A stretch of DNA of 64,000 nucleotides from a virus. The notes under the pieces were generated by a model that did no database searches, was not told the origin of the DNA, and worked only from the letters and a program-made list of their open reading frames with translations. Below are positions 2,875 through 64,000 of this stretch, in pieces (position 1 is the stretch's first letter; each line of letters begins with the position of its first letter). Made by a program: the position numbers and the translations under genes. The DNA lies in UHGV virus genome UHGV-1430452. One strand, given 5' to 3'.

Positions 2875-3075
2875 TTATTTTAAAATGCCTTTATGTCTAC
2901 ATAACTCTAGCAACATTTCATTCTCTTCTTGTAAAGCCTCTAATTTATCGGCAGCATTCTTACAGTAAATATGAATCGCATTAGACATTTTATCCGTTTC
3001 ATCCAACGGAACTTTCGTTAATGGAAACATATTTACAAGCCAACGTAGAGACTTAGCTTCTGGTACTTCTTTCAT
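2875..3075 (-). CDS. hypothetical protein
   Basis: 66-aa ORF. Confidence 0.35.
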   Translation of the reverse strand: MKEVPEAKSLRWLVNMFPLTKVPLDETDKMSNAIHIYCKNAADKLEALQEENEMLLELCRHKGILK

Positions 3076-3281
3076 TCGTTTCTCCTTTCAAATATCAGCT
3101 CCTAATTTAGTCTATCTTTACTATTTGTTCTATGCCGCCATCCCTAAGCTCACGATTTACAACTTGTGCTCCGTAAATTTCAAAATAGTCTGATTCTACA
3201 ATTTGCAAATCCTTTGGCAATTGTTCTAAAATATCGATAAGTTCACCTACTGTCATTTAGTTTCTCCTTTCAAATATCAAC

Positions 3282-3632
3282 TCACAAATCCTCATAGCTA
3301 TGAGCAATCAATGCGTAAATACTTTTATCTAAAACAAACGCATTATCGCCATCATTTCCGAAACCGATTACTCTATGATTCTTCAAGTTGTCACCGTGGA
3401 ATTTCGCATCAATACAACTTTCATCTTTGCTAGTCTGCATAACACAAAAAGTGACATAATTATCGTTAGGAAGTTTTATAGATATAGTGTTCATCCAGTC
3501 TTTAGATTTATGGTCCAAATGAGACATATCAACTGTATAGTGATTACATTTGTTGAATGTCGGATAACCTAATTTCTCAGCTTCCTCGATTGAACATTTA
3601 GTAAATATCAATTCTTTTTGTGTTGCTTCCAT
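3282..3632 (-). CDS. hypothetical protein
   Basis: 116-aa ORF. Confidence 0.4.
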   Translation of the reverse strand: MEATQKELIFTKCSIEEAEKLGYPTFNKCNHYTVDMSHLDHKSKDWMNTISIKLPNDNYVTFCVMQTSKDESCIDAKFHGDNLKNHRVIGFGNDGDNAFVLDKSIYALIAHSYEDL

Positions 3633-12028: not shown

Positions 12029-12967
12029 TCAAATCATGTTGAGAATATCCCCATCCACATTGAAATCAAGAAGAATAGTTCTCTCATAACCGTTCACGAA
12101 GTTACGATTTGCCTCGTTGTAAGTGTTATAGATTCCGAAATCTACGAAATTATCACCTACTGGATGTTTCTCGTCATAAATCCATCCAACAATCTGACCT
12201 GCCTGTGTACGCGGGATTCCGAGCATATCATATACTTCATTCAGGAACAGATGACCTTTCGTTTTCAACATGTCATTTGCATAACGCTGCTGATCTTTAA
12301 GGAACATTAGATTGAATTCAGGATCTTTAGTCCATCCTGTACATCCATCATCGAAGAATTTAGCATAATCGCTGTAACTGTCGAGAGTTGCTACATTTGC
12401 TGTTTTCTTAACAGTAGTTTCTGTACCATCTTCATTTACAACAGTCTCTTCGATTTCTTTTGCTTTGATGTTGTACTTCAGTTCTTTATCAAGCTCTTCA
12501 CCAAATCTCTCAATAACACGACCACGATATTCCTTGAAGCCTTTGTCAATAGTTGCATAAGCGGCTGCAAGTGCTAAGTTACGTTTACGAAGAATATGAT
12601 GACCACTAAGAATAGCAGCGATAGAAACTGTTCCAAGGATTACTGCTGGAGCATAAAGTTTTGCTACCTTTACGGCTGTTTGAGTATACATGATAGTTAA
12701 ATCTTTCTTACCATCTTCTTCTGTGTACTCTTTACCTTCTGGAACCATATCTGGATTTTCCATAAATTCATGAATTTTCTCGATTTTTTCTTTTGGCTCA
12801 GCGAGCACCTCATCGAGTTTAGTAGTTGCTTTACATGCCATTACAGCAGAGCCAACTACACCAACAATACCTGCGCCAACCAAGATTTCAGGGCTATGCT
12901 TTTTAAATTTAAAACCTACACGATGGAGGCTTCTAGTTACTGTGTTCATAATTTCTAATTTTGCCAT
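12029..12967 (-). CDS. membrane-anchored protein, paralogue family member A
   Basis: 312 aa; shares the N-terminal block (SPEIL..G.GI.G..S.V.A.KAT.K..E) and the YAPAVILG...RxLALAAAY block with 15042..15869 and 17330..18106. Confidence 0.5.
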   Translation of the reverse strand: MAKLEIMNTVTRSLHRVGFKFKKHSPEILVGAGIVGVVGSAVMACKATTKLDEVLAEPKEKIEKIHEFMENPDMVPEGKEYTEEDGKKDLTIMYTQTAVKVAKLYAPAVILGTVSIAAILSGHHILRKRNLALAAAYATIDKGFKEYRGRVIERFGEELDKELKYNIKAKEIEETVVNEDGTETTVKKTANVATLDSYSDYAKFFDDGCTGWTKDPEFNLMFLKDQQRYANDMLKTKGHLFLNEVYDMLGIPRTQAGQIVGWIYDEKHPVGDNFVDFGIYNTYNEANRNFVNGYERTILLDFNVDGDILNMI

Positions 12968-15041: not shown

Positions 15042-15869
15042 TTAATAGTAGCTATCGAAACCATATTCCGGAGGCATCAGATGATCAATAACAATACACG
15101 GTTCATTATCTTCCGTAATTTGAGCACTATATCTCACATCGATTTTGCCTTTATCGATTCTCCAACCGATGCTATTACCAACTTCGGTATGCTTAAGACC
15201 AATTTCGTCATAGAAATCATTCAGAGAAATATACATCTCGTTACCGTTGATCATTCTCTCATTAAGAGTAAGAACAGCATTTTTAATCTTGTCGATATCC
15301 GATCTGAAATATCTGTCGGAATGACTGTCATAACACAACGTGTTACCTTTACCTGTCATGATAATCTGAGTGTCTGCAACCGGATGTTCTTCAACTTGCT
15401 TCTTAGCGACTTTATCTCTGATGTTATTTTCCTTCTTCTCTCCGATAGTCTCTACCACTTTCTCTCTGTAGTCAGACAGTGCTGTTGTAGATAACTGATA
15501 TGCTGTTGCCAATGCTGCGTTACGTCTTACATGTACGGAATTAGCACCGATAAGACAAGCGACTGACGCAATGCCAGTGATAGCTGCTGGAATATAAGGT
15601 TTCCAAGCTGCTTTTACTGTTTCGACAGGTGTGAGATTTAAAGCGTTTCTTTCGTCTTCTTCTGTGAAAATACCGCCTTCATGAGCTTCTTTCTCTTTAA
15701 ACTTCTTCTCTTCCTCGATTAACTCCATAGCTTTTGGTGTTGCTTTTACTGCAAGCACAACAGTAGATATCATACCTGCGATACCAATGCCAGTAAGAAT
15801 TTCCGGACTGCGTTTTTTCATTACATATTTTGCAGTGTTTAAAAATTTTGTTACATTTGGTTTGTTCAT
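15042..15869 (-). CDS. membrane-anchored protein, paralogue family member B
   Basis: 275 aa; same N-terminal and central blocks as 12029..12967 and 17330..18106. Confidence 0.5.
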   Translation of the reverse strand: MNKPNVTKFLNTAKYVMKKRSPEILTGIGIAGMISTVVLAVKATPKAMELIEEEKKFKEKEAHEGGIFTEEDERNALNLTPVETVKAAWKPYIPAAITGIASVACLIGANSVHVRRNAALATAYQLSTTALSDYREKVVETIGEKKENNIRDKVAKKQVEEHPVADTQIIMTGKGNTLCYDSHSDRYFRSDIDKIKNAVLTLNERMINGNEMYISLNDFYDEIGLKHTEVGNSIGWRIDKGKIDVRYSAQITEDNEPCIVIDHLMPPEYGFDSYY

Positions 15870-24052: not shown

Positions 24053-24649
24053 ATGACAATAGGACAAAAAATAAAAGAATTACGCAATCAACTTAATATG
24101 TCGGTGGATGATCTTGCTGTGAAACTGGGTAAGAACCGTGCGACTATCTACCGCTATGAACGAGGAGATATCGAGAACCTCCCTCTCGATGTACTAGAAC
24201 CATTAGCAAATGCTCTTGAGACCACACCTGGTTATTTAATGGGATGGGAAGAAACTACGAAAAAGAAAGAGCCTTCAATTATCGATGAAGTTACCATGGG
24301 TGACGTTTTTAAAGCGTTACGTCTAGGAAGTAATTTATCGATAGAGGAATTTTCGCATGAGATTGGATTATCTGCCCAAGACATAAGCAATTATGAAGCA
24401 GGAAAGACTCCTATACCTGTAAATATAATTAATCTTGTTGCTGATTTCTTTGGCATATCAATAGCGGAAATAGTTAAGGCACACAAAAACAGCGAAAATA
24501 GAACGCCTTCTGGTTTCGAAATGAAAAAGGAACGATTTGAACGTTTTAAAGTTTGGAATAAAGAGTTTGGACGAATACATTTTACTGATGAAGAAATCAA
24601 TAAAATAATGGAATATACAAGGTTCTTACTTAGCCAAAGAAGACAGTAA
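24053..24649 (+). CDS. XRE-family repressor with two tandem HTH domains
   Basis: IKELRNQLNMSVDDLAVKLGKNRATIYRYERG and FKALRLGSNLSIEEFSHEIGLSAQDISNYEAG. Confidence 0.8.
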   Translation: MTIGQKIKELRNQLNMSVDDLAVKLGKNRATIYRYERGDIENLPLDVLEPLANALETTPGYLMGWEETTKKKEPSIIDEVTMGDVFKALRLGSNLSIEEFSHEIGLSAQDISNYEAGKTPIPVNIINLVADFFGISIAEIVKAHKNSENRTPSGFEMKKERFERFKVWNKEFGRIHFTDEEINKIMEYTRFLLSQRRQ

Positions 24650-24734
24650 GTCTACATAGGTTTACTCTATTTAAAGGAGGTGATGCCTGAATTCAGTTCA
24701 TCGTAGAATTTACATCAAAGGAAAGGTGGAACCA

Positions 24735-26312
24735 ATGACAACGTTTGATATGAACAACGCTGTAGACAATGCGTTCGGTATGGACGTATATGCTATCTAT
24801 CTTCGGAAAAGTCGAGCCGATGTAGAAGCAGAAAAACTTGGAGAAGGAGAAACACTAGCAAGGCATAGAAAGATACTAACAGAACTTGCTGCTAGAAAAG
24901 GATTGTATATCGGTAAGATTTACGAGGAAATTGTATCTGGTGAAACAATCGAAGCTAGACCTGAAATACAAAAACTGATAGAAGATTGTTATAAAGGGAA
25001 ATATAGAGGAATCCTAATAGTAGAAGTTACTCGTCTATCTCGTGGTAATCAAGGAGACGCTCAAAAAATACTCGACTGTCTCAAATATTCGAATAGAAAC
25101 AATGGTGTATTAGTTATCACTCCTACTAAGACTTATGACGTTGCACACAGCCAAGAAGACGAAGAATATATGGAGTTTGAATTGTTTATGTCTCGTCGAG
25201 AATATAAGATGATTCAAAAGCGTATGGATCGTGGCCGTAAACAAGCAGTCGTAGAAGGAAACTTCATGGGTAGTTACCGTCCCTATGGATATGACATCTT
25301 AAAAACCAAGACCGGACGAACACTTATACCGAATGAAGATGAAGCTCCTATCGTGAAAATGATTTACGAATGGACAGTTAACGATAATTTATCTCCTTTC
25401 AAGATAGCTGAGCGTTTAACTAATATGGGTGTTCCTACTTATTATGGTGAGAAGGATTGGTCTAAAGAAACAGTTAAAACCATTTTGACGAATCAGACAT
25501 ACATGGGTAAAGTTCGTTGGAATGATCGAATGACTGTTAAGACTATGGTCGACGGAGAACTTAAAGCTACACGACCTCGTTCAAATCATTCCGATCACTT
25601 CATGCTATATGATGGAAAACATATGAAACACGCACTCGTCGACGAAGAAACATTCAAAGCAGCCTCCTCTCGCTTTCATAACGATAGGACAAGATCAAAT
25701 CTAAAACTTGTTAATCCTCTTGCAGGACTTCTATTTTGTAAGAAATGTGGTAAATCTATGGGTTATCAATCATATAGACATAAGAAAAACGGACCAATGG
25801 ATCGATACAATCATAGACAGTCTGCTAATGGATGCAAGGTTAAGTCAGCAGTTGCTGAGGATGTTATAAAAGCTGTTATACATGCTTTGAAACTTTATAT
25901 AGAAGATTTCGAATTTAAGTTAGACAACACTCCAGATGTTGACGAAAATTCAATCAATACGCAGCTCGAAGCTTTACAAAAAGAAATACGAAAATCCGAA
26001 CGAAAACTTGCTAAGCTATTCGATTCTTGGGAAGATGAGAAGATAACAGATAATGAATTTGTTCAAAGGAAAGCCGTCCATAATCAGAAGATAGAAAATA
26101 TAAAGAGGCAAATGGAAGAACTCGAATATTCGATACCAGAAAGAGAAGAATATGAGGATAAAATAATATTGCTGTCTGAAGCACTTGTCGCTATCACAGA
26201 CGAATCGCTTGACGCAGATATTAAGAACGAGTATCTTAAAAGAATCATTGATAGAATAGAGTTTAGTAGAGAGAATAACTCAGAGTTTATACTAGATATA
26301 GACTTATGCTAA
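24735..26312 (+). CDS. int: large serine recombinase (integrase)
   Basis: N-terminal catalytic region YLRKSRAD...ARHRKIL; recombinase domain; zinc ribbon CKKCGKSMG...CKVKS; C-terminal coiled-coil; ~525 aa. Confidence 0.85.
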   Translation: MTTFDMNNAVDNAFGMDVYAIYLRKSRADVEAEKLGEGETLARHRKILTELAARKGLYIGKIYEEIVSGETIEARPEIQKLIEDCYKGKYRGILIVEVTRLSRGNQGDAQKILDCLKYSNRNNGVLVITPTKTYDVAHSQEDEEYMEFELFMSRREYKMIQKRMDRGRKQAVVEGNFMGSYRPYGYDILKTKTGRTLIPNEDEAPIVKMIYEWTVNDNLSPFKIAERLTNMGVPTYYGEKDWSKETVKTILTNQTYMGKVRWNDRMTVKTMVDGELKATRPRSNHSDHFMLYDGKHMKHALVDEETFKAASSRFHNDRTRSNLKLVNPLAGLLFCKKCGKSMGYQSYRHKKNGPMDRYNHRQSANGCKVKSAVAEDVIKAVIHALKLYIEDFEFKLDNTPDVDENSINTQLEALQKEIRKSERKLAKLFDSWEDEKITDNEFVQRKAVHNQKIENIKRQMEELEYSIPEREEYEDKIILLSEALVAITDESLDADIKNEYLKRIIDRIEFSRENNSEFILDIDLC

Positions 26313-49486: not shown

Positions 49487-51205
49487 TTACAGTAGCTCGT
49501 TAACTCGATCCTGAATTTTCTGAATCATGTTGTGATCGTATCCAGCTTTTGCGAGGGCATTAATTCGTGCATCTCCATTACCGTATTTTCCGGCAATGAC
49601 ATCACGGGCTACATTATCAATCACTATCTGATTTACTTTCTTCTGCACAGTGTCTGGATTATAACCAGCTTTCTTGAGAGCAGACACACGAGCATCACCA
49701 TTACCCCATTTTCCAGCTAAAACCTCTTTAGCTACTTCATCGATAGATTTAGTAGGTTTTGCAGGAGCTTTAAGTAGTTCATTCACTTTCTTCTGTACAG
49801 TGTCTGGATTATAACCAGCTTTCTTGAGAGCAGACACACGAGCATCACCATTACCCCATTTTCCAGCTAAAACCTCTTTAGCTACTTCATCGATAGATTT
49901 AGTAGGTTTTGCAGGAGCTTTAAGTAGTTCATTCACTTTCTTCTGTACAGTGTCTGGATTATAACCAGCTTTCTTGAGAGCAGACACACGAGCATCACCA
50001 TTACCCCATTTACCGGCGATTACTTCTTTAGCAATTTCATCGATAGATTTGGTCGGTTTTGGCGTAGATGTAGGTTTAGATGTTGGTGCTGGTGTGGAAG
50101 AACTTTTCGCATATTTTGGTCTAGCAAAACCACGAATCATACCCCAGCCAACCGGAATGGTACGTCTTGCTACTGCTTCTCCTCTGTTACCTTCAATCGC
50201 TGTGATTTGTCCGTTTGAAACAGATTCCACATACCCGATATGATCAGAATATCCGTCGTTTGGCTGAGTCTTATCATCCCAGTTATAAACAATTACATCA
50301 CCAGGTTTCGGAGTAATGGTGCCGTCCTCGACCCAAATGCCTTTCTGCTTAAAAATCTTAATATGTTCCTCACAACCAACTTCTGTACCGATGAGATCGA
50401 CTGCTCCGGATTTGATAGCTGCTGCTGATACTGTACAATCACACCATTCATCATTAGGTTTAATAGCGTATCCGCGAGCCAAAGGTTTGTGAGAATTATA
50501 GATGTTAAGAATCTCAATATATTTACCGTTAGCTTCAGAATAACCGAGCCAACTTCTCATAACATTAAGAACGTCCTGTGCTGTTACACCCAATTCCGTA
50601 TCCTCCTGTTTTCCGTAAAAATAGTTCATGTCGACTTTACCTTTAATACCGCCTACAGTTCCGGAACTCGTATACTGATGAACCAAACAACCGTAATCTG
50701 CTTTTCCGTTATAATCAGCGAGCCAGAATTTGTACTGTTTAATCAGATCATGATTATACCAATTTCGATAGTAGTCGATATTTGCGTAGATTCCAGCTTT
50801 GTATCCCTGAGATTCTACGTACTCACAAAAGATTCTTGTAAAGTTATTACATTCATTTTTACCAAGTCTCACACCTTTTGCAGCTGCTTTCTTGACTGTG
50901 TCATATTCGAAATCTGCGAAGATGATTGTGTTTTTATCAAGACCAGCTTTTCTAACAACATCAACACAGAATTTTGCTTCGTCAAGTGCGCCCTGTTCGT
51001 TTAAGGCATAAATAAAATGGTAAGTTCCTATAATCGGAATCTTGTTGTTTTTACACCCATTGACATACTCATAGAATTTTGAATCTACTGTCTTCCTGTA
51101 AGAAGATCTAAGAATCGCGAACTCTATTCCGGAGGACTTGACTTTAGAAAAATCTACATCTCCCTGCCAATAGCTGATATCAATTCCTTTCTTCACAATC
51201 ATCAT
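49487..51205 (-). CDS. peptidoglycan hydrolase: GH25 muramidase + CHAP-like domain + four CW_7 cell-wall-binding repeats
   Basis: GIDISYWQG GH25 N-terminus; Cys/His segment DEWCDCTVSAA...SDHIGYV...IEGN; 4x IDE(V/I)AKEV(L/I)AGKWGNGDAR(V/I)SALKKAGYNPDTVQKKVN. Confidence 0.8.
   Translation of the reverse strand: MMIVKKGIDISYWQGDVDFSKVKSSGIEFAILRSSYRKTVDSKFYEYVNGCKNNKIPIIGTYHFIYALNEQGALDEAKFCVDVVRKAGLDKNTIIFADFEYDTVKKAAAKGVRLGKNECNNFTRIFCEYVESQGYKAGIYANIDYYRNWYNHDLIKQYKFWLADYNGKADYGCLVHQYTSSGTVGGIKGKVDMNYFYGKQEDTELGVTAQDVLNVMRSWLGYSEANGKYIEILNIYNSHKPLARGYAIKPNDEWCDCTVSAAAIKSGAVDLIGTEVGCEEHIKIFKQKGIWVEDGTITPKPGDVIVYNWDDKTQPNDGYSDHIGYVESVSNGQITAIEGNRGEAVARRTIPVGWGMIRGFARPKYAKSSSTPAPTSKPTSTPKPTKSIDEIAKEVIAGKWGNGDARVSALKKAGYNPDTVQKKVNELLKAPAKPTKSIDEVAKEVLAGKWGNGDARVSALKKAGYNPDTVQKKVNELLKAPAKPTKSIDEVAKEVLAGKWGNGDARVSALKKAGYNPDTVQKKVNQIVIDNVARDVIAGKYGNGDARINALAKAGYDHNMIQKIQDRVNELL
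49530..50130. repeat. 150-bp tandem DNA repeat (about 4 copies, two identical) encoding the CW_7 repeats
   Basis: Copies starting 49681 and 49831 are identical over ~150 bp; flanking copies diverged. Confidence 0.8.
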
Positions 51206-53621: not shown

Positions 53622-55559
53622 TTAGGCAGTTTCTTTCACGAATTCAAGAGCTACTGCGGAATACGGTTTAACAAGTGTACCGGAGCAACGTGTCTCCATA
53701 AGATACTTCTGCTTGTTGTAATCGATATCGAAATCATCGAAGAAGTTGATTTCTCCACCCTTATCTGTACCTACGTTGTAATCTTTAAGATTTACATAGA
53801 TACCAGCAAGCTCATATGTCTTATTTTCATCGTCTGTTCTTGTAAGACCTTCCATTACCGGAACCGGAACGATTTCTCTTACGCGAAGAGATGCTGCAAG
53901 TTTCTGTACGCTATCATAGATAACACGTCCGTTTGTATCTTCAATGAGCAAGCAATCTGTAAGCATATCCTCAGACATGAACATATCAGGGTTGCCAGAT
54001 CCTTTATAATTCTTTCTGGATTTGATGCAAGCTTTGATGAATGCCTTAGCTTTCTCTTCAGCAGTAGCGGAATCGCTTACATTGATAGCTGCTTTAACTG
54101 TGAAAAGATCTTCCATCTTCCAGATAGGTCTGATGCAGTCCTCATTGATTTTATCGTTAGCCTCTTCAACCGGATCTCTTCCATCACCGATAAGGAATGC
54201 GCGAGCAAGTTCCTCATCAAGCATCATACGAACTTCTCTCTTCAGCCATGGAAGAATATCGAAATCTGTAATATCAAGCATGTCATCGCGATCTAATGCC
54301 TGTTTCTTGTATACAGTTGTTGGATTTGTTACACGTTTGAGAAGCTTAAATACTTCTTCAATTTTAAGTTTGCCTTTCTGGTATCCCTTTGCTCTAGCCT
54401 GTGCTGCTGTGATGTCAGCAAAGATAGTTTTGATACGGGAGAACGGTGTGTGATGTACTCCGCCAAGTACTTTTGATACCCAATCGTCATTACGTTTGAT
54501 AAATTCCGGTTCATTGTTAAGATTCTTTGCATCCGGGAATAAGATGTCAATGTCTGTGATACCATGAGCAAGCACTGCCTCTTTAAGAGAACCTGAGCGT
54601 TTCGCATCTTCGAAAATCGCAGTCATCTCGGAGTGTGTAAGCACATCATCTGCCATAGGGGTTTCATTGTCGAATACGTTGTGTTTCATATTTTTGTTTC
54701 CTCCTTCATTTTCATCATCTTCTTCGGTTTCAACACCAGCATCTTCTAATGCCTGTCCGATCATAGCGTACACAACAGTTTTCTGTTTCTCAGAAAGAGT
54801 GTTGAATACATCAGCTACAGTTTCTTCTTTGTTTTCTCCCTTTGTTTCTTCCTCGGCATGTTTTACTTCTTCCTCAGAATGGGTTACTTCTTCTTTGTCT
54901 GGTTTATCATCGTTTTCTTCTTTGATACCAGCATCTTCTAATGCCTGTCCGATCATAGCGTACACAACAGTTTTCTGTTTTTCAGAAAGAGTGTTGAATA
55001 CATCAGCTACAGTTTCGTCCTTATTTTCTTCGGCATTATGTTTTTTGGTTTCTTCTGCCATTTTTTCTTCTCCTTTCTCAGAAGTATCTGCGTGGAACAA
55101 TGACTCCACATTTTCGATATATTCGCCTGAGCTGATATATCCCTCTTCATAAGAATCTTCGCCATGCATCATGACAGACTCTATTACTGCGCCTGGATTA
55201 GCACCAGCTAAAACCAAACTAAGCTCACGAATGACTCCGTGAACTACATTACTTCCCTGCTGTTTAAGTCTGTTGGCATATATGGAAAATCTATTCACAT
55301 CACCATGCTGAACCAGCAATTTAGCATTCTGCCCTGATTCCGTATCGTTAAATGTGCAATATGCATACACACCTTCGTCCCTGTTTTCCAGCAAGGCATG
55401 ACCGAGCACTTCATCTACGCTATTATGCTGATGATTCCAAACTAACGGTACAGTTTCACCATCGCACTCTTTGAATGCATCTTTCATGATGACTCTACCG
55501 TCCGCACACAGCATGTCAGCTTTAGTAGCCCAGCCAGAACAATCATATGACTTAGCCAT
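53622..55559 (-). CDS. prohead protease - scaffold-like linker - major capsid protein fusion
   Basis: N-terminal prohead-protease-like region (VPLVWNHQ...FSIYA...ELSLVLAGANPGAVI); acidic linker with duplicated ETVADVFNTLSEKQKTVVYAMIGQALEDAG; ~350-aa C-terminal capsid-like domain. Confidence 0.6.
   Translation of the reverse strand: MAKSYDCSGWATKADMLCADGRVIMKDAFKECDGETVPLVWNHQHNSVDEVLGHALLENRDEGVYAYCTFNDTESGQNAKLLVQHGDVNRFSIYANRLKQQGSNVVHGVIRELSLVLAGANPGAVIESVMMHGEDSYEEGYISSGEYIENVESLFHADTSEKGEEKMAEETKKHNAEENKDETVADVFNTLSEKQKTVVYAMIGQALEDAGIKEENDDKPDKEEVTHSEEEVKHAEEETKGENKEETVADVFNTLSEKQKTVVYAMIGQALEDAGVETEEDDENEGGNKNMKHNVFDNETPMADDVLTHSEMTAIFEDAKRSGSLKEAVLAHGITDIDILFPDAKNLNNEPEFIKRNDDWVSKVLGGVHHTPFSRIKTIFADITAAQARAKGYQKGKLKIEEVFKLLKRVTNPTTVYKKQALDRDDMLDITDFDILPWLKREVRMMLDEELARAFLIGDGRDPVEEANDKINEDCIRPIWKMEDLFTVKAAINVSDSATAEEKAKAFIKACIKSRKNYKGSGNPDMFMSEDMLTDCLLIEDTNGRVIYDSVQKLAASLRVREIVPVPVMEGLTRTDDENKTYELAGIYVNLKDYNVGTDKGGEINFFDDFDIDYNKQKYLMETRCSGTLVKPYSAVALEFVKETA
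54736..55018. repeat. ~90-bp duplicated module inside the capsid fusion gene
   Basis: Near-identical DNA at 54736-54825 and 54929-55018. Confidence 0.7.
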
Positions 55560-55908: not shown

Positions 55909-57180
55909 TCATAGGTCCGAAATTGGTGTGTCACCTAATGAGGGTTCTTCCTCTGGTGGAATATCTTCTTCACTTATATCCGGAGTTGGATTCAATCCAG
56001 TTCCTGTTTGATTGATGTTGCTATTTACTAACTGGTCAGCTTTTGGATCATCTGATGGTTTCATACCAATAATCTGTCGAACCTCATTAGCTGTAAGTAT
56101 TTCATTCTGCGTAAACACTCCAGCGATTTCAGCCAGTTTACTAAGAGGAACGAGTCTAAACGAATCTCTGAAGAATTTGATAGTCTGATTCTGAGATCGT
56201 GCTGTCTTTGTTAAAAACTTGCGTTTCATCTCATCGACGATTGCTGCGACAATTGGCTCAATAGTCCTTGAATAGTAGTTCAGCATTTCTTCTTCGCTCG
56301 CTGATCCATCGAGTATCGCCTGTGTGATTCCAAGCTGGCTGTATAGTTGAGCAGTTAGATATTCCACTTGTTTCATCAGGTTATTGTCGAGAGGTCTGTT
56401 TAACTGCACTATCTTTTCAGTTCCATCAACATAGCCAATACCGTAAGTGGAACCGCTTAGCTGTTGCTCCAGGTCCGCACGTCTTTCATTAGCTAGTTTT
56501 CGCCGAGCTTCAGATTTAATAGAATATGGTAGCTGAATAATCATGTCCAATTTTCCACTACTGATACGTTCGTCCATTCTATCGAGAAGGGCAAGTTTTC
56601 GCGTAAGACGCTGCATGGTAGAATTATGCTCATTGATAACCGCATATAAAGGATTCTCAACTATAGCTACCATTTTCTTTTCAAGCTTAATGTCTTCTCG
56701 TTCTCCTGTTCGTTCATTGTAAACTCTAACTTTCACATGGTTTGGATACCATTCAAGAATTTTACCAGTTCGCATGGAAAGTATTTTATATGATTCAGTT
56801 TGAGATGGATCTATATCTGTATCAACAGGAACTATTGCTACACAGCCCTCGTCAAGCATAGACATAACGATATCTTGTGTGAATGCTCTACCAGTCTGAT
56901 CGATATTCGCTTCAAGATTCAGACATTTATTAAGAGTCGAATCAATCTTTTCTATAAATCTACCGTTACTGTCTATACGACAGTGATTAATATTTATAGA
57001 AGAGACATCCAAAGCTATTCGATTAAAAATAGCAGTAACAACAGATCGCTCATTACCCCTAGTGAATCTCGGCCTATCCGGTCTATTTGAATATCCTGGA
57101 CCAATGTTACGAGAGTCATATGTCGGATCTCGGTTCATGAAAGCATTCCACGAATGCCGAAGTCTATCTATAAAATCCAT
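55909..57180 (-). CDS. portal protein
   Basis: 423 aa, between terminase and capsid genes; acidic C-terminus. Confidence 0.55.
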   Translation of the reverse strand: MDFIDRLRHSWNAFMNRDPTYDSRNIGPGYSNRPDRPRFTRGNERSVVTAIFNRIALDVSSININHCRIDSNGRFIEKIDSTLNKCLNLEANIDQTGRAFTQDIVMSMLDEGCVAIVPVDTDIDPSQTESYKILSMRTGKILEWYPNHVKVRVYNERTGEREDIKLEKKMVAIVENPLYAVINEHNSTMQRLTRKLALLDRMDERISSGKLDMIIQLPYSIKSEARRKLANERRADLEQQLSGSTYGIGYVDGTEKIVQLNRPLDNNLMKQVEYLTAQLYSQLGITQAILDGSASEEEMLNYYSRTIEPIVAAIVDEMKRKFLTKTARSQNQTIKFFRDSFRLVPLSKLAEIAGVFTQNEILTANEVRQIIGMKPSDDPKADQLVNSNINQTGTGLNPTPDISEEDIPPEEEPSLGDTPISDL

Positions 57181-57194
57181 TTTGATTTTACCTC

Positions 57195-57791
57195 CTATGG
57201 TGTTGATGGATTAAGACTTTCAGCGATTTTAGCGTCTATGTATGAATGTATTTCAGCTATATCCGCTTCCGTCCAATAATCAGTACCTCTGACAGGTGTC
57301 TTCCCATCAGTACCAGGATCTCCTTTTGGTCCAGCATCACCAGTATCACCTTTTGGTCCCTGAACACCCTGTTCACCTTGAGGTCCGGTTAATCCTGTAT
57401 CTCCCTTTGGACCCTGAATACCTTGTTCACCTTGAGGTCCAGTAGCTCCGGTATCACCTTTTGGTCCCTGGATACCCTGTTCACCTTTCGGGCCTGTAGC
57501 TCCGGTATCACCTTTCGGACCTTTAAGACTAGCTAACCATTCAGTCTCGCTTCCTTCGAAACCAGTAGAAAGCGCTACTTGATAAGCAGAATCACCTGGA
57601 TCTCCTTTTTCACCAGGAGGGCCAGGAGTGGTTGAACCAGTTCCTCCGTTAGTAATGAGCTCGCATAATTCCCAAAGCAATTCTTCAGCTCTAGACTGAG
57701 GTCTCGGCAATCCTTCAGTACCTTTCTGTAAGATAGTATTTTTCATATATTCTTCAAATCTACTATCCGGTATGTATGTTTCATCGATCAT
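57195..57791 (-). CDS. collagen-like repeat protein
   Basis: 198 aa; GPKGDTGATGPKGEQGIQGPKGDTGATGPQGEQGIQGPKGDTGLTGPQGEQGVQGPKGDTGDAGPKGDPG. Confidence 0.55.
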   Translation of the reverse strand: MIDETYIPDSRFEEYMKNTILQKGTEGLPRPQSRAEELLWELCELITNGGTGSTTPGPPGEKGDPGDSAYQVALSTGFEGSETEWLASLKGPKGDTGATGPKGEQGIQGPKGDTGATGPQGEQGIQGPKGDTGLTGPQGEQGVQGPKGDTGDAGPKGDPGTDGKTPVRGTDYWTEADIAEIHSYIDAKIAESLNPSTP

Positions 57792-57809: not shown

Positions 57810-58055
57810 TTAGAGTTCAATTCCTTCAATGGCTGCTCTTACCTCAAGACATCTGAGATACTCGCCCATGTAACGTTTCTGCTCCTGAAGTTTTGCTATC
57901 GGGCAAGTTGGTTTGAAGTCGAGAACTCCTGCTTCATGTTTTACAAGCATCTGATGTAATTTGTCATATCGAATCTTTGTCTGATAATACTCAGCTTTAA
58001 AACGATCTTTATAATCGGAACTATTCATAAGTTCAATCGTGTCTTTTAACTCCAT
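57810..58055 (-). CDS. hypothetical protein
   Basis: 81-aa ORF; AAGGAGG RBS. Confidence 0.4.
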   Translation of the reverse strand: MELKDTIELMNSSDYKDRFKAEYYQTKIRYDKLHQMLVKHEAGVLDFKPTCPIAKLQEQKRYMGEYLRCLEVRAAIEGIEL

Positions 58056-58144: not shown

Positions 58145-59878
58145 CTATTCAAAAGCATCCTTGTTCAGTTTATAAGCAACGAACGCATCCATAAGTGCTG
58201 CAACGCAGTCAATCTTATGCTCTCGTTTGCGTTTATAAAGTTTTCTGTTACCGTTGGTGTCTTCAAGGGTGATACAGTTTCCCATAGCAAACGACATGAT
58301 CTCTTCATCGAATCGAAGCATTCTCTCTTCAGAAAGGTTCTTTAATTCTCCAAGAGGAATAGATTCTGTCTTTGCTCCCTGAATTACTTTCTCAATACCA
58401 AACGGACCATTCTCGGTTTCCCATCTATTAACAAATTCCTTTGCTCCATACGGGTCAAAGCCGAAACACCGAACATCGTAATCACTATCGATAATATGTT
58501 TATCCAGATCGTCGTAAACTTGCATCATATCGAGGATCGCACCGTCGAGAACTATCAAACTACCTTCATTCATAAACTGATCGTATTTCGTCCGCATAGC
58601 TGCTGGTAATTTCATCAGAGTTAATGAAGAAATATAGTTTCTAGTCTTAATACCGAACGTTCCATCCTGTAAAGGGAACATAAATGAGAATGAGCAAAAG
58701 TCGTCTCCCTGCGATAAGTCTGCTCCCATAGCACAAGGTAATCCCCAGTAATCTCTACGTCTATGAGGTATTGTCTCTTCATAAGTAAAGTAATAGGTAT
58801 AACCTTCCAACGGGATTCCAAATCTTTTCGCAAGAATATCGTTCTTTGCTGCTGGGTTCTGTTCGGCTCTTTCCACGTCAAGCTGATATGCTTCAGGGCT
58901 AACGGTCTTTCCAATATTCGGATTAGCCTTAAGCCACATTTCTGGATTTCCTACTTCCTCAATATCATCGAGCTTATACCACCAGATTGATACGTGAGGA
59001 TTAGTGTACTCGTCTCGAAGAATCTTAGATAATTCCATTTTGATTGTGTCGCCGCTACCATTTCGTACAGTACCTTCTGAACTGGTTGCCACAATAAGAT
59101 AATCATCATTTTTTGAGGCACCCTGTTCAACAGCACCAACGACGTCTTCTCGTACATCTCCTGATAGCCATTCATCTATAGTGGAGATCTTATCTCTTCG
59201 TGACTGCAATTTATCGATGGACATTGGTAGAACTTCGATTATTGAATTTGTAAGGAAGTTCTCTACACCCTTTTTCGTACTAGCTAACTTCTGTCGATTC
59301 GCCCTTGAGCCTGTAGTATTCTGTAAAGAGCCCTCTGTTAAGAATTTAAACAAAGGACCTCTAGCTCTTGCTATAGCTGTACGAATAGGAGCTAATGTTG
59401 CTTCTGATTGTCTCATTGTCGGCGCGGTTACTAATTGCTGAGTAGTACTCGTGTCGACATTTAAAAAATAAGCCTGAATACATGCCGCATACATCGATTT
59501 AGCAGCACCTCTGGCTACGATCAAATACTGTTTGTTAACCAGTCGTTTCTTAATTCTCTTGGTAACATATCGTCCTTCGTCGTAGTCATAGACTGATCGT
59601 TCAACGAAGTAATACCAACCGAAAATCTGTTCCGCCCAAAGTTTAAACGAATCAAGTAAATGTAGATCTTCGCCATCAGTTAATGTGAGTTCGTTCTCAC
59701 AATAATTAATAAAACCCTGGATCGCTTGGTCGTCATACCAAATTCCAGGGTTAGCTATAAGATCATCTATTCGATTCATCTCCATCGAGATTTCTTTACA
59801 TATTGGGATTTCTCCTCGCATGACCGCCTCTCTAAAGCGGCCGTAATATTTCGGAACAGCCGTGTTTGAAAGACTCAT
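58145..59878 (-). CDS. terL: terminase large subunit
   Basis: 577 aa; Walker A-like LIVARGAAKSMYAA; ATPase and nuclease halves in the usual order. Confidence 0.8.
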   Translation of the reverse strand: MSLSNTAVPKYYGRFREAVMRGEIPICKEISMEMNRIDDLIANPGIWYDDQAIQGFINYCENELTLTDGEDLHLLDSFKLWAEQIFGWYYFVERSVYDYDEGRYVTKRIKKRLVNKQYLIVARGAAKSMYAACIQAYFLNVDTSTTQQLVTAPTMRQSEATLAPIRTAIARARGPLFKFLTEGSLQNTTGSRANRQKLASTKKGVENFLTNSIIEVLPMSIDKLQSRRDKISTIDEWLSGDVREDVVGAVEQGASKNDDYLIVATSSEGTVRNGSGDTIKMELSKILRDEYTNPHVSIWWYKLDDIEEVGNPEMWLKANPNIGKTVSPEAYQLDVERAEQNPAAKNDILAKRFGIPLEGYTYYFTYEETIPHRRRDYWGLPCAMGADLSQGDDFCSFSFMFPLQDGTFGIKTRNYISSLTLMKLPAAMRTKYDQFMNEGSLIVLDGAILDMMQVYDDLDKHIIDSDYDVRCFGFDPYGAKEFVNRWETENGPFGIEKVIQGAKTESIPLGELKNLSEERMLRFDEEIMSFAMGNCITLEDTNGNRKLYKRKREHKIDCVAALMDAFVAYKLNKDAFE

Positions 59879-59921: not shown

Positions 59922-60494
59922 TTAACGACCATAACGAGCATTGTTCAATATTCTTGACACATAGGTTCGTCCAGTCTTTTTGTATGCTTCTTGAGATTCG
60001 AGCAACATAGCATCTGCCTTATCAGATAATCTTGAAGCATCTTCGAACATTTTATTATACTCCTTAGCATCTGCTGTTTTGTTCTGTGCAGAAGCTATAA
60101 ATCTTGAAACTGCGTTTTTACCAAGTTTCTTGCGCTGCTCTTTAACCTGATTCCACTTTGCATCAGCAACATCACTAGCTTTTGATGCTGCATCAACCTT
60201 TTTAGAATAATCTTTTACTGCTGATTTTTTGGCATCTACTTTCGCTTTCTTTATGTCGGCTTTTGCTTCTCTTAAAGAAGCCTTAGCTGCATCTCTTTGG
60301 ATCTTATTACCTTTTCGAATAGCTCCAATACCGTTCAACTGACCAGAATTCCTAGCTGCTTTACGAGCTTCTAATCCATCAGCTCTGGCTTTCTTAGAGG
60401 CTTGTCTAAAGGTCGGCTGATCGCTTCTCCTTCTAACTCCCCACTTCATGCCTTTTACACCGTAGTGCATTAATTTGTCATCATAGTATCCCAT
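59922..60494 (-). CDS. leader-sharing paralogue 4 (190 aa, Lys/Ala-rich coiled-coil)
   Basis: N-terminus LMHYGVKGMKWGVRRR shared with the three genes upstream; sits in the usual small-terminase slot. Confidence 0.5.
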   Translation of the reverse strand: MGYYDDKLMHYGVKGMKWGVRRRSDQPTFRQASKKARADGLEARKAARNSGQLNGIGAIRKGNKIQRDAAKASLREAKADIKKAKVDAKKSAVKDYSKKVDAASKASDVADAKWNQVKEQRKKLGKNAVSRFIASAQNKTADAKEYNKMFEDASRLSDKADAMLLESQEAYKKTGRTYVSRILNNARYGR

Positions 60495-60523
60495 TTTGAA
60501 TTTTCACCTCTTATCTCAAATAG

Positions 60524-61660
60524 TTATGTGTTCCCGGACAGCATCCCAATGATTTCTCTATCCGATAGTTTCGTGTTCGGATGTTGTTTACGATAATTAT
60601 TTATCGCTTTTGTGTTAAAAGCATATGATACTCCTACTGGAACAGTTGCTCCCAAAGCATACGTAGCTCCCTTTTTTGAGCCAGTTATTATTTTGTTGAC
60701 GTAGTCTTCAGCTTTCTGTATTTTCTTAGCTTGATCAAGATTCTTTGAAATCTCATCAACCGTTAATTCTCTAAAATTAGTTACAGAAATCTTTCCTTTC
60801 GCATCAAATACTATGAGAGGATTTTTTGTCTTGTAGTCATTAAACTTCATATCGTTAATGTCTTGAATAGCATTATATCCTTTTGATTTCATAGCACTAT
60901 AAAATGTTTTGGATGAATATGAATCATGATTCCCAGCTAATTTAGAATTGAAATTTTCATACAGTTTTGATAACTCACTATCTGTATACGTTCCGAATTT
61001 AGCAAATCTTATAGGCTTTTCATTCGAACTTATAGAGCTTGGTAGATTATGTACATACTCTGCGAACTTTTTATCATTCTTATAAAGATCTTTGAATACT
61101 TTCTTCGCATTATTCTTAGAAGCAACTTTGACATCATCTTTAACTAATAAAGACATCACATATGCTTTTCCAGTCTGTTGATATCGTTCTCTACCAAGTT
61201 TACCTGCATATTTTATGTTATCGGTTTTCTTGTATGAAGCGAAGAAATTATCGTATAACTTTCCTCCGGTATCTTTCATCTCTACTCGTTGCAACAACTT
61301 TCCAGACTTTATAGTTTTATCACAGTAATCTTTAATGTACTTATTTGTTGCATATGCAGCTATCGAAGCAACTGTGATACCGGCTGTTATGGCTATGATT
61401 TTCTCAGTTTTGATACGTCTATCAGCCGCCATCTTAGCCTGTTTAGGACTCATCCCTTTGCTAATATACTTAGATTCAATCCTCGATCTGTGACTCGATC
61501 TATTTGTGCTCTTATCGGATTCGTTTTGGTATTTATTCTTTCCAGCATTAGTGAGAGAACCGTCTTTATTTTGGTAACGTCTTATTCCCCATTTCATGCC
61601 TTTTACACCGTAATGGTAGAGTTCATCTGTAGAAGTTATTCTTGAAATTGCATACTCCAT
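60524..61660 (-). CDS. leader-sharing paralogue 3 (378 aa)
   Basis: N-terminus ELYHYGVKGMKWGIRRYQNKDGSLT; C-terminal block homologous to paralogue 2. Confidence 0.5.
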   Translation of the reverse strand: MEYAISRITSTDELYHYGVKGMKWGIRRYQNKDGSLTNAGKNKYQNESDKSTNRSSHRSRIESKYISKGMSPKQAKMAADRRIKTEKIIAITAGITVASIAAYATNKYIKDYCDKTIKSGKLLQRVEMKDTGGKLYDNFFASYKKTDNIKYAGKLGRERYQQTGKAYVMSLLVKDDVKVASKNNAKKVFKDLYKNDKKFAEYVHNLPSSISSNEKPIRFAKFGTYTDSELSKLYENFNSKLAGNHDSYSSKTFYSAMKSKGYNAIQDINDMKFNDYKTKNPLIVFDAKGKISVTNFRELTVDEISKNLDQAKKIQKAEDYVNKIITGSKKGATYALGATVPVGVSYAFNTKAINNYRKQHPNTKLSDREIIGMLSGNT

Positions 61661-61677
61661 TTTGACTCACCTACCTC

Positions 61678-62736
61678 TTAACTCAAATACTTATCAAGTT
61701 TACGGTTCACATAAGAATCGCACTCCGACACACTCTTCGTTCCGAGCTTAGATACGAAACCAACTGTATTAGCTCCGATTTCCTTAACGATTCTTTCTGA
61801 ATTGTATTTTCGATACAGCTTGTCTACAATTTTAGGATTCGCTTCGGTTACAGACTGAAGTTTCACCGAATCTGTATCAAACACAATCATAGGTCTTTTC
61901 GCATGATAACTTGAATACTCCTTATCGTTATAGTCAAGTAAAGCATTATAACCTTTCTTCTTTAACTCTGAGTAGAAACGATTTTGTGCAGCTATCTCTT
62001 GTTGATTATGGTTTACAAGGGATAGATTCAGAGCCTTATAGATAGCCACCTTTTCAGAATTTCTAAGTTTACTTGGATCTTTCTCCAAAGCATTTTGAGC
62101 TTGTTTAAATAGAACCTGTTGAGTAGGTCGCCGCATCTTCTCTTTAGAGTCAGCTATCGAAGCCTCTACATTCTTCTTAAACTCTGGCTCTTTCAATAAG
62201 TTTGCGGTTATGTAGCCAGCGTTCTCATCTGACGGAACTTTCAACTTCTTCACAGTTTCCAGTTTCAACTGATAAACCTTCATATTATTGCTTTTATCTC
62301 TTAGAGATTTTGCAACGTTGAAATCTTCCTCACTGCCGGTTGCCTCAGCCTGTTTCTCAGCACGTCTTGCATCCGAAGCAGCTCTACTCGTAAGATTCTT
62401 ACCAAATAATCCGAGATACTTATCCATGTCTTTCTTTTTATATGTAGCGTAGAATGCGAAATTCTCGAATTCTTTTGAAGTCTGGATTCGAGCGAATGTA
62501 GTACCTTTTCTTAAATATGTATCAACGTACTGCTTACCTGTGACTTGAGTTTTGACAGTGTTTTTTAATTCAGAAACTTTCATACTCATTAACGTAGTCT
62601 TTTTCTGTGTGATATGAGTATCTGAAGAATTCTGATATCGTTTCTTACCAGATGGTGTCAATGTTCCGTCAGCATACTGATATCTCCTAACACCCCACTT
62701 TTGACCTTTAACGCCGTGATGATAAAGTTCTTCCAT
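61678..62736 (-). CDS. leader-sharing paralogue 2 (352 aa)
   Basis: N-terminus MEELYHHGVKGQKWGVRRYQYADGTLT. Confidence 0.5.
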   Translation of the reverse strand: MEELYHHGVKGQKWGVRRYQYADGTLTPSGKKRYQNSSDTHITQKKTTLMSMKVSELKNTVKTQVTGKQYVDTYLRKGTTFARIQTSKEFENFAFYATYKKKDMDKYLGLFGKNLTSRAASDARRAEKQAEATGSEEDFNVAKSLRDKSNNMKVYQLKLETVKKLKVPSDENAGYITANLLKEPEFKKNVEASIADSKEKMRRPTQQVLFKQAQNALEKDPSKLRNSEKVAIYKALNLSLVNHNQQEIAAQNRFYSELKKKGYNALLDYNDKEYSSYHAKRPMIVFDTDSVKLQSVTEANPKIVDKLYRKYNSERIVKEIGANTVGFVSKLGTKSVSECDSYVNRKLDKYLS

Positions 62737-62739
62737 AAC

Positions 62740-63285
62740 TTACTTACCACTTAGCGCTTTGATGGCTAAAGCAATGCTTAATGCCGACCCGGTTACTGCT
62801 AAAACATCACCGGTGGTTTCTAGCATTCTACTAGCATACTCGCGTCCTTTCGTGGTTTTTTGAGGAGCAAACATATCATTATATTGTTTCTCCAAAAGAG
62901 CTCTATTAATCTGATCACGCATTTCTTTATCGGTCATGTTGCTTAAGTCCATCTTTTGTTTCGGATTATTTCTGATAGACTTATCGGTCATGGTCTTTAT
63001 ATTACGGCTCAGTCCAGCAGTAGCATCGGTCAAAGATTTGGTTCTTTCCAAGTCTTCTTTAACATATCGTCTAGCATCTGCTATGTTGTCAGTTCGACCG
63101 TTCTTTTTAGACTGCTTATAATAAGTACCAGTAGACTCATCATACTTATTAAATTCTTTTTCTCTAGAGTCTCTTTCATATCTCTTCTGACCTTTTTCAG
63201 TAAGAGTACCATCCTTGTTCTGGTATCTTCTTACTCCCCATTTCATGCCTTTAATTCCATGATGATAGAGTTCATTATTGTCCAT
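62740..63285 (-). CDS. leader-sharing paralogue 1 (181 aa)
   Basis: N-terminus NELYHHGIKGMKWGVRRYQNKDGTLT; C-terminal hydrophobic helix. Confidence 0.5.
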   Translation of the reverse strand: MDNNELYHHGIKGMKWGVRRYQNKDGTLTEKGQKRYERDSREKEFNKYDESTGTYYKQSKKNGRTDNIADARRYVKEDLERTKSLTDATAGLSRNIKTMTDKSIRNNPKQKMDLSNMTDKEMRDQINRALLEKQYNDMFAPQKTTKGREYASRMLETTGDVLAVTGSALSIALAIKALSGK

Positions 63286-63640
63286 TTTGAATTACCTCCT
63301 TTCCAGTTTGTTCTGCCTCCACATTAAGTCTCCATTCAAGCTCGTTGATCATCTGTTTCATGGCTTCCATTACAGCAGAGCTAAGAGGAGGATCGAAAAT
63401 AAGTCTAACCTTTAGATACATATAGGTTTTTACAGCCTCGAAGTTTTTGTTATCGGTCGGAAGAAATTCATCCCATGTAGTAAACTTATCCGTGATATGA
63501 AATCCATTACTAGGACCAACTCCCAACTGACTAAGTATCATGAATACAGAATTGATATGCATGATGATATCAGAATCAAAGTGCTCATAATCTTCTGTTA
63601 TACCGAGCATCTTTTTAACTGATGTAAGTATACTTTCCAA
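63275..63640 (-). CDS. gp6-like head-tail connector / DNA-packaging family protein (putative)
   Basis: 121 aa; N-terminal pattern SVKKMLGITEDYEHFDSDIIMHINSVFMILSQ resembles the gp6-like connector family. Confidence 0.35.
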   Translation of the reverse strand: MESILTSVKKMLGITEDYEHFDSDIIMHINSVFMILSQLGVGPSNGFHITDKFTTWDEFLPTDNKNFEAVKTYMYLKVRLIFDPPLSSAVMEAMKQMINELEWRLNVEAEQTGKEVIQNGQ

Positions 63641-63657
63641 TATTCACACCTCCTTCG

Positions 63658-63951
63658 CTATCGTTTCCAGGGACAAGTGTCATTTGGTTTTCGTTCTATT
63701 GGTTCTGTTATAAGTAAGCTCTCGTCTCCGTAGTGAATAGCGTTGTGGGTATTGAGTGTTGTAGAAATTACATTCTCTGGATCGAATACTTTCGGATCTC
63801 GTAGAAGAACGTCTTCTACTGAAATTGGATTTATATGATGCACGAGGATCTTACCCACTATCTCATAACCTTCACAGGCCAAATCACAGCCATTATCTCG
63901 AATAATTATTTCGTTACGAAAGCGCTTCCATTCTGTCGTACGATAAAGCAT
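63658..63951 (-). CDS. HNH endonuclease
   Basis: 97 aa; Cys pair CDLACEGY, HHINPI, NTHNAIH; packaging-module position. Confidence 0.7.
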   Translation of the reverse strand: MLYRTTEWKRFRNEIIIRDNGCDLACEGYEIVGKILVHHINPISVEDVLLRDPKVFDPENVISTTLNTHNAIHYGDESLLITEPIERKPNDTCPWKR

Positions 63952-64000
63952 CTGATTTAAATATCGATCATAGCCGAATGTCTCAACACCAACTTGTCCG

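Follow-up and report, generated by a model that had tools for sequence, protein, structure and literature searches.

What could be the function of a short peptide that stands at the head of four different proteins encoded one after another next to a phage terminase gene? This question is raised by a 64,000-nt stretch of DNA (hereafter called the window) from the virus genome UHGV-1430452, in which an array of four open reading frames (ORFs) lies on the minus strand directly upstream of TerL, with a spacing of 3-43 nt. The four ORFs code for proteins of 181 (62740-63285), 352 (61678-62736), 378 (60524-61660), and 190 (59922-60494) amino acids (aa), and the first of them overlaps the gene for the head-tail connector by 11 nt. 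The N-terminus of all four proteins takes the form (E)LYH(H/Y)G(V/I)KG(M/Q)KWG(V/I)RR, in which H, G, K, G, K, W, G, R, and R do not vary. We propose, with about even confidence for and against, that these four genes are one instance of a lineage-wide and highly variable array of 'leader plus module' genes within the head-assembly block.

The leader was identified as the Pfam family PF23847 (DUF7211), a hidden Markov model (HMM) of 25 positions with a gathering score of 27 bits. All four proteins matched this family above the gathering score (E 2.7e-6 to 3.4e-11), the bit scores being 41.7, 27.1, 40.4, and 42.8 for the 181-, 352-, 378-, and 190-aa proteins, respectively. The borderline value of the 352-aa protein (27.1 against 27 bits) rose to 46.8 bits with a lineage-specific HMM. 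By search of the six-frame translation of the entire window with the leader HMM, exactly four matches were obtained (E 1.3e-15 to 8.5e-14), and the next best stood at E 0.9. As judged from the Pfam match coordinates, the leader-coding DNA, always on the minus strand, is located at 63220-63279 for the 181-aa protein (aa 3-22; here also from alignments), 62677-62733 for the 352-aa protein (aa 2-20), 61571-61633 for the 378-aa protein (aa 10-30), and 60423-60485 for the 190-aa protein (aa 4-24). Synonymous sites differ among these four DNA stretches, and therefore it is the peptide that is conserved; a recent DNA repeat or gene conversion as the source of the conservation was ruled out by the same differences. 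In three of the four proteins, conservation continues over about 40 aa (..RRYQNKDGTLTxxGKKRY), and the 190-aa protein has the core motif alone in common with the other three leaders. The two short proteins (181 and 190 aa) resemble each other in the leader only. Homology between the 352- and 378-aa proteins covers the full length (29% identity, E 2e-28), including the block YNA..D.ND....Y..K.P.IVFD.

A preliminary description of this DNA had listed the four tandem minus-strand genes of 181, 352, 378, and 190 aa upstream of terL, a leader common to all four, and a C-terminal block shared by the two long proteins. The gene positions proved exact, the leader was found in these four proteins and nowhere else in the window, and the C-terminal block turned out to be part of a homology that covers the full length. 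The family was stated there to be unrecognized. This holds for its function and not for its existence, because DUF7211 and several PHROGs (7502, 32444, 7021, 11022, and others) already list the leader; of these PHROGs, the long pair matches phrog_7502 and the 181-aa protein phrog_32444. DUF7211 and its PHROGs have no assigned function, except for phrog_35934, which is labelled 'virion structural protein'. No paper mentioning DUF7211 was found in the literature search, and NCBIfam gave no match for any of the four proteins. When the 42-aa leader was used in a word-indexed protein search, fragments of 33-74 aa were detected and nothing longer.

The window phage is assigned by its sequence to the lineage of Lactococcus phage 1706 and related actinophages, which also includes the Rhodococcus phages ReqiPepy6 and ReqiPoco6, the Faecalibacterium phage FP_oengus, and phage clusters of Gordonia, Arthrobacter, Streptomyces, and Microbacterium. 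The 1706-like siphophages have Firmicutes and Actinobacteria as hosts, and the nearest to the window phage are uncultured human-gut phages such as MT835495. By tblastn of the leader against 50,697 phage records, 94 records were matched, all belonging to this lineage and often with several matches per genome. The lineage was surveyed with 87 loci plus the window, and 80 of these loci were fetched through TerL. Throughout the survey the gene order was invariant: a small conserved protein, HNH, connector, 0-4 DUF7211 genes, TerL, 0-7 DUF7211 genes, portal, and a protease-capsid fusion. That related phages carry such genes in variable number was seen in the 78 complete loci, in which the count of DUF7211 genes per locus ranged from 0 to 8 (0 in 2 loci, 1 in 23, 2 in 34, 3 in 12, 4 in 6, and 8 in 1). 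The window was the only surveyed locus with four DUF7211 genes upstream of TerL.

Confinement of the motif to this interval was strict. Between connector and portal, 162 of 237 ORFs (at least 60 aa, TerL excluded) carried the motif, and 9 motif-bearing ORFs were found elsewhere. The window array belongs to the class as we define it here, with motif-bearing genes lying between the Phage_connect_2 connector and the portal and flanking TerL. The number of motif-bearing genes per phage was 8 in ReqiPepy6, 5 in Streptomyces phage Bing, 4 in Gordonia phage Avazak, 3 in MT835495, 1 in FP_oengus, and 1, with two motif copies, in 1706. This last gene, orf7 (462 aa), carries the core module described below in addition to the two motif copies, and is a true homologue in the same slot; the same is true of the eight motif-bearing genes gp013 and gp015-gp021 of ReqiPepy6, among which gp020 is homologous to the 378-aa protein of the window over its full length. 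The two phages differ from the window in module number, fusion state, and cargo, and ReqiPepy6 has most of its genes of this type between TerL and portal. In the deposited record of phage 1706, orf7 is called a 'structural protein', whereas neighbouring genes are called 'putative' or 'unknown'. Virion mass spectrometry was reportedly included in the paper on phage 1706.

Stand-alone genes have the motif at the N-terminus of their product, and in fusion proteins it is placed internally. When 1.84 billion representative proteins were searched exhaustively with the profile, 40,172 were matched at E<=1e-3; the leader is a conserved and portable unit also in homologues. The best 150 of these 40,172 proteins were 220-1570 aa long and carried 2-5 motif copies with a median spacing of 208 aa. 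Two polyproteins could be placed on contigs, one directly after a Phage_connect_2 gene and the other directly before a portal gene. Since polyproteins occupy the same slots as arrays, the four genes of the window correspond to a four-module polyprotein in split form. The middle modules are in opposite order in two related four-module polyproteins from metagenomes (P0242 and P0243; locus L089, 1002-3284), and this swap suggests recombination at the leader-coding segments. The logo of 358 internal motif instances, drawn from -8 to +12, consists of acidic residues at -8 to -4, followed by F/Y, L, E/A, H, an aromatic residue, G, V/I, K, G, M, K/R, W, G, V, R, and R/K; no variation was seen in H, the three G, and W.

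One explanation of this arrangement would be that the motif is a processing or junction element, such as a recognition site of the prohead protease between the modules of a polyprotein, and that the stand-alone genes are split versions retaining a redundant junction. In polyproteins with 2-5 copies, each module is indeed preceded by the motif, arrays and polyproteins can replace each other in a given slot, and the lineage has an S78 protease fused to its capsid protein. Against this, selection has maintained the motif at the very start of hundreds of stand-alone proteins, in which there is nothing to separate, and no conserved residue pattern of scissile type flanks it beyond the motif itself. 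We consider this explanation unlikely, and it would in any case be compatible with packaging of the modules inside the head rather than exclusive of it.

The module most widely shared among these loci is that of the 181-aa protein, herein referred to as the core. This protein is composed of the leader, a basic linker, the helix motif MTDKEMRDQINRALLEKQY, for which the consensus is (M/L)(S/T)DxELRxxxNRLxxExQY, and a C-terminal helix that is hydrophobic and rich in small residues. It matched DUF7211 at E 7.4e-11 and phrog_32444 at E 3.6e-27, its isoelectric point (pI) is 9.7, and its strongest hydrophobic stretch spans aa 161-179. By a leader-masked HMM, the core module was detected in 82 of the 87 related loci, usually directly after the connector; its gene lies directly upstream of TerL in 57 cases and between TerL and portal in 17. 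The gene immediately upstream of TerL is the 190-aa gene in the window and the core gene in most relatives, in which the array is also found downstream of TerL. The core forms the last module of most polyproteins, and in actinophages it is the C-terminal end of proteins that start with a 2H phosphoesterase. The AlphaFold2 (AF2) model of the 181-aa protein consisted of helices only, with the leader disordered (pLDDT 64, pTM 0.26); at this pTM, a search for a small-terminase-like fold in the core would not be meaningful. The 181-aa protein is probably an internal structural component or an ejection component.

The location next to TerL brings up the small terminase. The core-type protein, and perhaps others of the four, could be a packaging accessory that acts as, or together with, the small terminase, its leader binding DNA or TerL. 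In line with this, the core gene is directly upstream of TerL in 57 cases, the four proteins are strongly basic, and the window contains no recognized small terminase. On the other hand, profiles of terminase small subunits in Pfam, PHROGs, and NCBIfam were matched by none of the four proteins, and the AF2 model of the 181-aa protein, made up of low-confidence helices, includes neither a helix-turn-helix nor an oligomerization barrel. In addition, there are 17 cases with the core gene between TerL and portal, actinophages have the core fused behind 2H enzymes, the deposited label of 1706 orf7 is a structural one, and nearly all loci carry a separate protein of about 115 aa (phrog_4259) upstream of HNH. 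We judge a role of this kind improbable. An expanded small-terminase-like family had been one of two readings in the preliminary description. It is not supported, given the lack of a profile match in the three databases, the ART-like (ADP-ribosyltransferase-like) fold of two of the proteins, the presence of the genes on both sides of TerL in relatives, and the phrog_4259 protein as a better candidate.

The phrog_4259 protein is encoded immediately upstream of HNH in nearly all 87 loci (for instance at 3029-3406 of locus L007, 1379-1729 of L003, 158-502 of L005, and 1386-1742 of L002). Only 49 nt of the window remain beyond the HNH ORF, so that the gene is not included and would be expected just past position 64000. 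In alignment A8, which contains sequences from gut Firmicutes phages and actinobacterial phages, 49 of the 50 other sequences were 47-73% identical to the MT835495 copy, and 1706 orf4 was 31% identical. The protein, to which no function is assigned, shows a helix-turn-helix-like pattern followed by a coiled-coil-like pattern. Pfam, NCBIfam, and PDB gave no support for its identification as a small terminase. On position, it is the best candidate for this role.

The two long proteins differ from the core in having a recognizable globular domain. In the 378-aa protein, the leader is followed by a long helix, part of which is hydrophobic (aa 88-106), an ART-like domain (aa 113-300; nt 60761-61324 on the minus strand), and C-terminal helices. 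The 352-aa protein has an ART-like globular domain at about aa 70-300 and no hydrophobic helix; it matched phrog_7502 at E 1.1e-20 and the HMM of the ART-like domain at E 1.6e-48. The domain was confidently modelled, and by structure comparison its fold was recognized as that of ADP-ribosyltransferases (split beta-sheet NAD-binding core). PDB sequence searches with the 378-aa protein and with the family profile gave no relevant match. Polar residues that are invariant or nearly so in an alignment of 48 sequences are D114, K118, Q124, D147, Y151, K178, Y234, N238, K258, D267, N269, D270, and Y276, and R125 is present in 43 of the 48. The 352-aa paralogue is a row of alignment A2, and so it keeps the invariant residues. 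The ART-like domain was found in 18 of 78 loci. We regard the 352- and 378-aa proteins as accessory effectors with a predicted ART-like domain.

The fourth protein, of 190 aa, is rich in Lys and Ala, has a pI of 10.2, and matched DUF7211 at E 3.4e-11. From its composition it is probably helical. No leader-independent homologue of it was found in the 87 loci, and we propose that it is a fast-evolving basic accessory protein. A wider range of cargo was found in relatives, of which the leader-bearing proteins carry GNAT acetyltransferases, a papain-fold glutamine deamidase toxin domain, 2H phosphoesterases, and a CW_7 repeat. For instance, gp15 of Gordonia phage Secretariat (locus L006, 5986-7539), annotated only as 'acetyltransferase', has the arrangement DUF7211-GNAT-DUF7211-papain-fold glutamine deamidase (Gln_amidase). 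After masking of the leader, 186 proteins fell into 44 clusters, 32 of them singletons.

Such a highly variable accessory content, here as 44 leader-masked clusters with 32 singletons, is typical of conflict genes. The proteins might act late inside the infected cell, in host takeover, anti-defence, or exclusion, without ever being packaged, the leader being a peptide for regulation, oligomerization, or localization. What speaks against this is the strict confinement of the genes to the connector-to-portal interval, their tight coupling with head genes, including the 11-nt overlap with the connector gene, the near-universal presence of the core module, and the structural label of 1706 orf7. 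We find this explanation highly doubtful.

Hydrophobic helices in the 181-aa (aa 161-179) and 378-aa (aa 88-106) proteins point in another direction, that of an ejection conduit or of membrane-acting proteins. While the DNA enters the cell, the leader would then serve for mutual assembly or for attachment to the envelope, with the enzymes active at the membrane or the wall. Homologues are annotated as membrane proteins (ReqiPepy6 gp020 and a protein of Arthrobacter phage Qui), and a wall-binding CW_7 repeat is present in one polyprotein. However, the 352- and 190-aa paralogues are devoid of a hydrophobic segment, and the cargo domains (ART-like, GNAT, 2H, and deamidase) have cytoplasmic targets in known systems. 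A function at the membrane appears quite unlikely to us; it would also overlap with packaging, since packaging would have to come first.

The reading that we favour is a modular tag, by which effectors are loaded or anchored inside the capsid and released into the host. We take the chances of this reading to be evenly balanced. It is preferred because of the classes of effector known to be packaged, the precedent of T4, the label of 1706 orf7, the combination of basic proteins with an acidic linker in the protease-capsid fusion, and the disorder of the leader. All four window proteins are basic (pI 9.7-10.2), and the leader is probably disordered in isolation, because pLDDT was low there in both AF2 models; such behaviour would be expected of a peptide that takes up its fold on a partner. 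The leader would dock each module on an internal component of the procapsid, for which the portal and the acidic protease-capsid linker may be considered; the docked modules would be enclosed in the head, possibly with cleavage by the prohead protease, and then be released into the host together with the DNA, where the enzymes could act. The other reading of the preliminary description, in which one leader would bring different cargo proteins into the capsid, agrees with the unit being portable, with the unrelated enzyme domains that it precedes in relatives, with its confinement to the head block, and with the label of 1706 orf7; as a hypothesis, it fits the evidence.

Presence in the virion is suggested by the deposited label of 1706 orf7, the label of ReqiPepy6 gp019 having been given by similarity alone, and both docking partners named above are candidates. 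Several observations weigh against the tag. Among the 358 internal motif instances, nothing conserved was found upstream of -8 when a flanking cleavage site was sought, and removal of the tag in the manner of T4 is therefore unsupported. Modules ending in ..KHS or ..KHV in some subfamilies were considered as a conserved protease site upstream of the motif and rejected, as the logo is empty beyond -8. Cleavage might take place inside the motif, for example after RR. One tag per polyprotein should suffice for targeting, yet the motif precedes every module, which hints at another or an additional role. The usual site of the core gene, immediately upstream of TerL, is the normal site of a small terminase gene. 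With respect to the long pair, no ART family of Pfam was matched at E<=1 by 48 family members, and the 48-sequence alignment contained none of the catalytic sets H-Y-E, R-S-E, and R-E-S and no invariant His or Glu within the domain.

The array is embedded in a block of head genes. On the minus strand of the window, the order is HNH, connector, the four DUF7211 genes, TerL, a crAss001_48-like gene, a collagen-like gene, portal, a 111-aa ORF, and the protease-capsid fusion. The HNH endonuclease (63658-63951; phrog_4321, E 7.5e-41) is part of the conserved packaging block and keeps its position in the 87 loci. The head-tail connector (Phage_connect_2; 63275-63640; PF24829, E 2.2e-42; phrog_4247) marks the upstream boundary of the array and corresponds in position and family to its homologue 1706 orf6. 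TerL (58145-59878), encoded right after the array, was identified by Pfam TerL_nuclease and TerL_ATPase and by phrog_9. Its conservation across host phyla is unusually high, with 71-76% identity to the TerL of Faecalibacterium, Rhodococcus, Gordonia, and Streptomyces phages, 85% to that of the closest gut relative, and 59% to that of Lactococcus phage 1706. Directly after TerL, an 81-aa protein related to crAss001_48 is encoded (57810-58055), and the same gene follows TerL in 9 surveyed loci. Between TerL and portal there is also a 198-aa collagen-repeat protein (57195-57791) with 54-nt tandem repeats at 57343-57515; its position is taken by a DUF7211 gene in close relatives. The portal gene (55909-57180; Pfam Phage_portal, E 6.5e-22) forms the downstream limit of the DUF7211 interval, as found in the locus survey.

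The fusion of S78 prohead protease and major capsid protein (53622-55559, minus strand; Pfam Peptidase_S78 and Phage_capsid) contains the strongly acidic linker (aa 141-300, pI 4.3). Within this linker, an acidic unit of about 64 aa is present in two copies, each with ETVADVFNTLSEKQKTVVYAMIGQALEDAG (window 54732-55013), and the relative MT835495 has one conserved and one diverged copy. The repeated acidic element FNTLSEKQK was considered as a docking site and dropped: its regular expression matched in only 21 of 77 loci, and the correlation of its copy number with the number of DUF7211 genes was weak (r = 0.35). No solved virion of the 1706 lineage was detected when the sequences of connector, portal, and capsid fusion were searched against PDB.

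Further features were noted outside the head block. A 572-aa protein (49487-51205) combines a GH25 muramidase, CHAP, and four CW_7 repeats; this lysin-like gene lies within the block of tail genes, between the tail assembly chaperone gene and the gene for a 2515-aa tape measure protein, an unusual site for a lysin. Two paralogous DUF6353 proteins of 312 and 275 aa are encoded about 2 kb apart in the non-structural region (12029-12967 and 15042-15869). The sole plus-strand block (24053-26312), at which the GC skew changes sign, contains genes for a Cro/CI-type helix-turn-helix protein and a large serine recombinase. With this serine-recombinase lysogeny module, the window phage is probably temperate.

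A bolder form of the tag reading may also be considered, in which the DUF7211 peptide of about 21 aa is by itself sufficient to load arbitrary proteins into 1706-like capsids and deliver them to Gram-positive cells, and serves at the same time as the recombination and junction point for shuffling of effector modules between phages, among them a new, catalytically atypical ART-like family. The lineage would then have a functional counterpart of T4 capsid targeting on a far larger scale, with more than 40,000 protein clusters. We hold this form to be possible, although somewhat more apt to fail than to stand. If the leader is a loading tag at all, this would explain a very common trait, so far unannotated, of gut and soil phages that infect Firmicutes and Actinobacteria, and nearly every accessory gene from connector to portal in this lineage would code for an injected protein. 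A simple sequence rule would then be available for virion-delivered effectors and anti-defence candidates, together with a new family of ADP-ribosyltransferase-like effectors and a short peptide with which protein cargo could be engineered into phages of Gram-positive bacteria. For annotation, it would follow that DUF7211 genes are not to be mistaken for the small terminase gene that is missing.

Comparison with known systems defines what is new in these findings. The motif as a catalogue entry and the concept of packaged effectors on a shared adaptor are already known. What appears to be new is the peptide adaptor of about 21 aa before every module, the scale and strict genomic confinement of its occurrence, the equivalence of arrays and polyproteins, and the atypical ART-like cargo. 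With respect to this cargo, the long pair showed no profile-level sequence match with the ART toxins MbcT/RES, diphtheria toxin, Rhs-CT TreTu, Tse6/Tne2, and ART-PolyVal, and its residues D147, Y151, Y234, N238, K258, D267, N269, D270, and Y276 do not make the H-Y-E or R-S-E triads. Effectors of the ART, GNAT, and 2H classes are known to be packaged in phage heads by fusion to MuF or portal or as polyvalent proteins, and peptidases are also among the packaged classes (PMC5512222; PMC9503650). The papain-fold deamidase cargo of the relatives resembles the peptidase class of the effectors described by Iyer et al. (2017, 2022). MuF and polyvalent effectors likewise combine a common head-associated unit with variable enzymes (ART, GNAT, 2H) and are encoded near terminase and portal genes. 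Polyvalent effectors are multi-module polyproteins (Iyer et al. 2017; PMC5512222), such as are also found among DUF7211 relatives; the window proteins, being encoded by separate one-module genes, are not polyvalent, whereas relatives with 2-5 modules per protein qualify. No MuF domain was found in the four proteins, the relatives, or the neighbouring head genes, and the shared unit of DUF7211 proteins is a peptide of about 21 aa before each module, in contrast to the folded MuF domain of about 100 aa.

The other system for comparison is phage T4, in which the ADP-ribosyltransferase Alt is packaged and the internal proteins IPI-III are targeted by a short N-terminal peptide (PMC3012670; PMC9958956). 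The leader has no sequence similarity to the T4 capsid-targeting sequence, and the DUF7211 carriers are, unlike T4, siphophages of Gram-positive bacteria. In T4, the targeting sequence attaches to the scaffolding core and is cut off by gp21 at a defined site; for DUF7211, no flanking cleavage consensus was seen. The organization is nevertheless alike in both systems: a short N-terminal peptide is placed on unrelated basic proteins, one type of cargo has the ART fold, and the genes are encoded together with those of the head.

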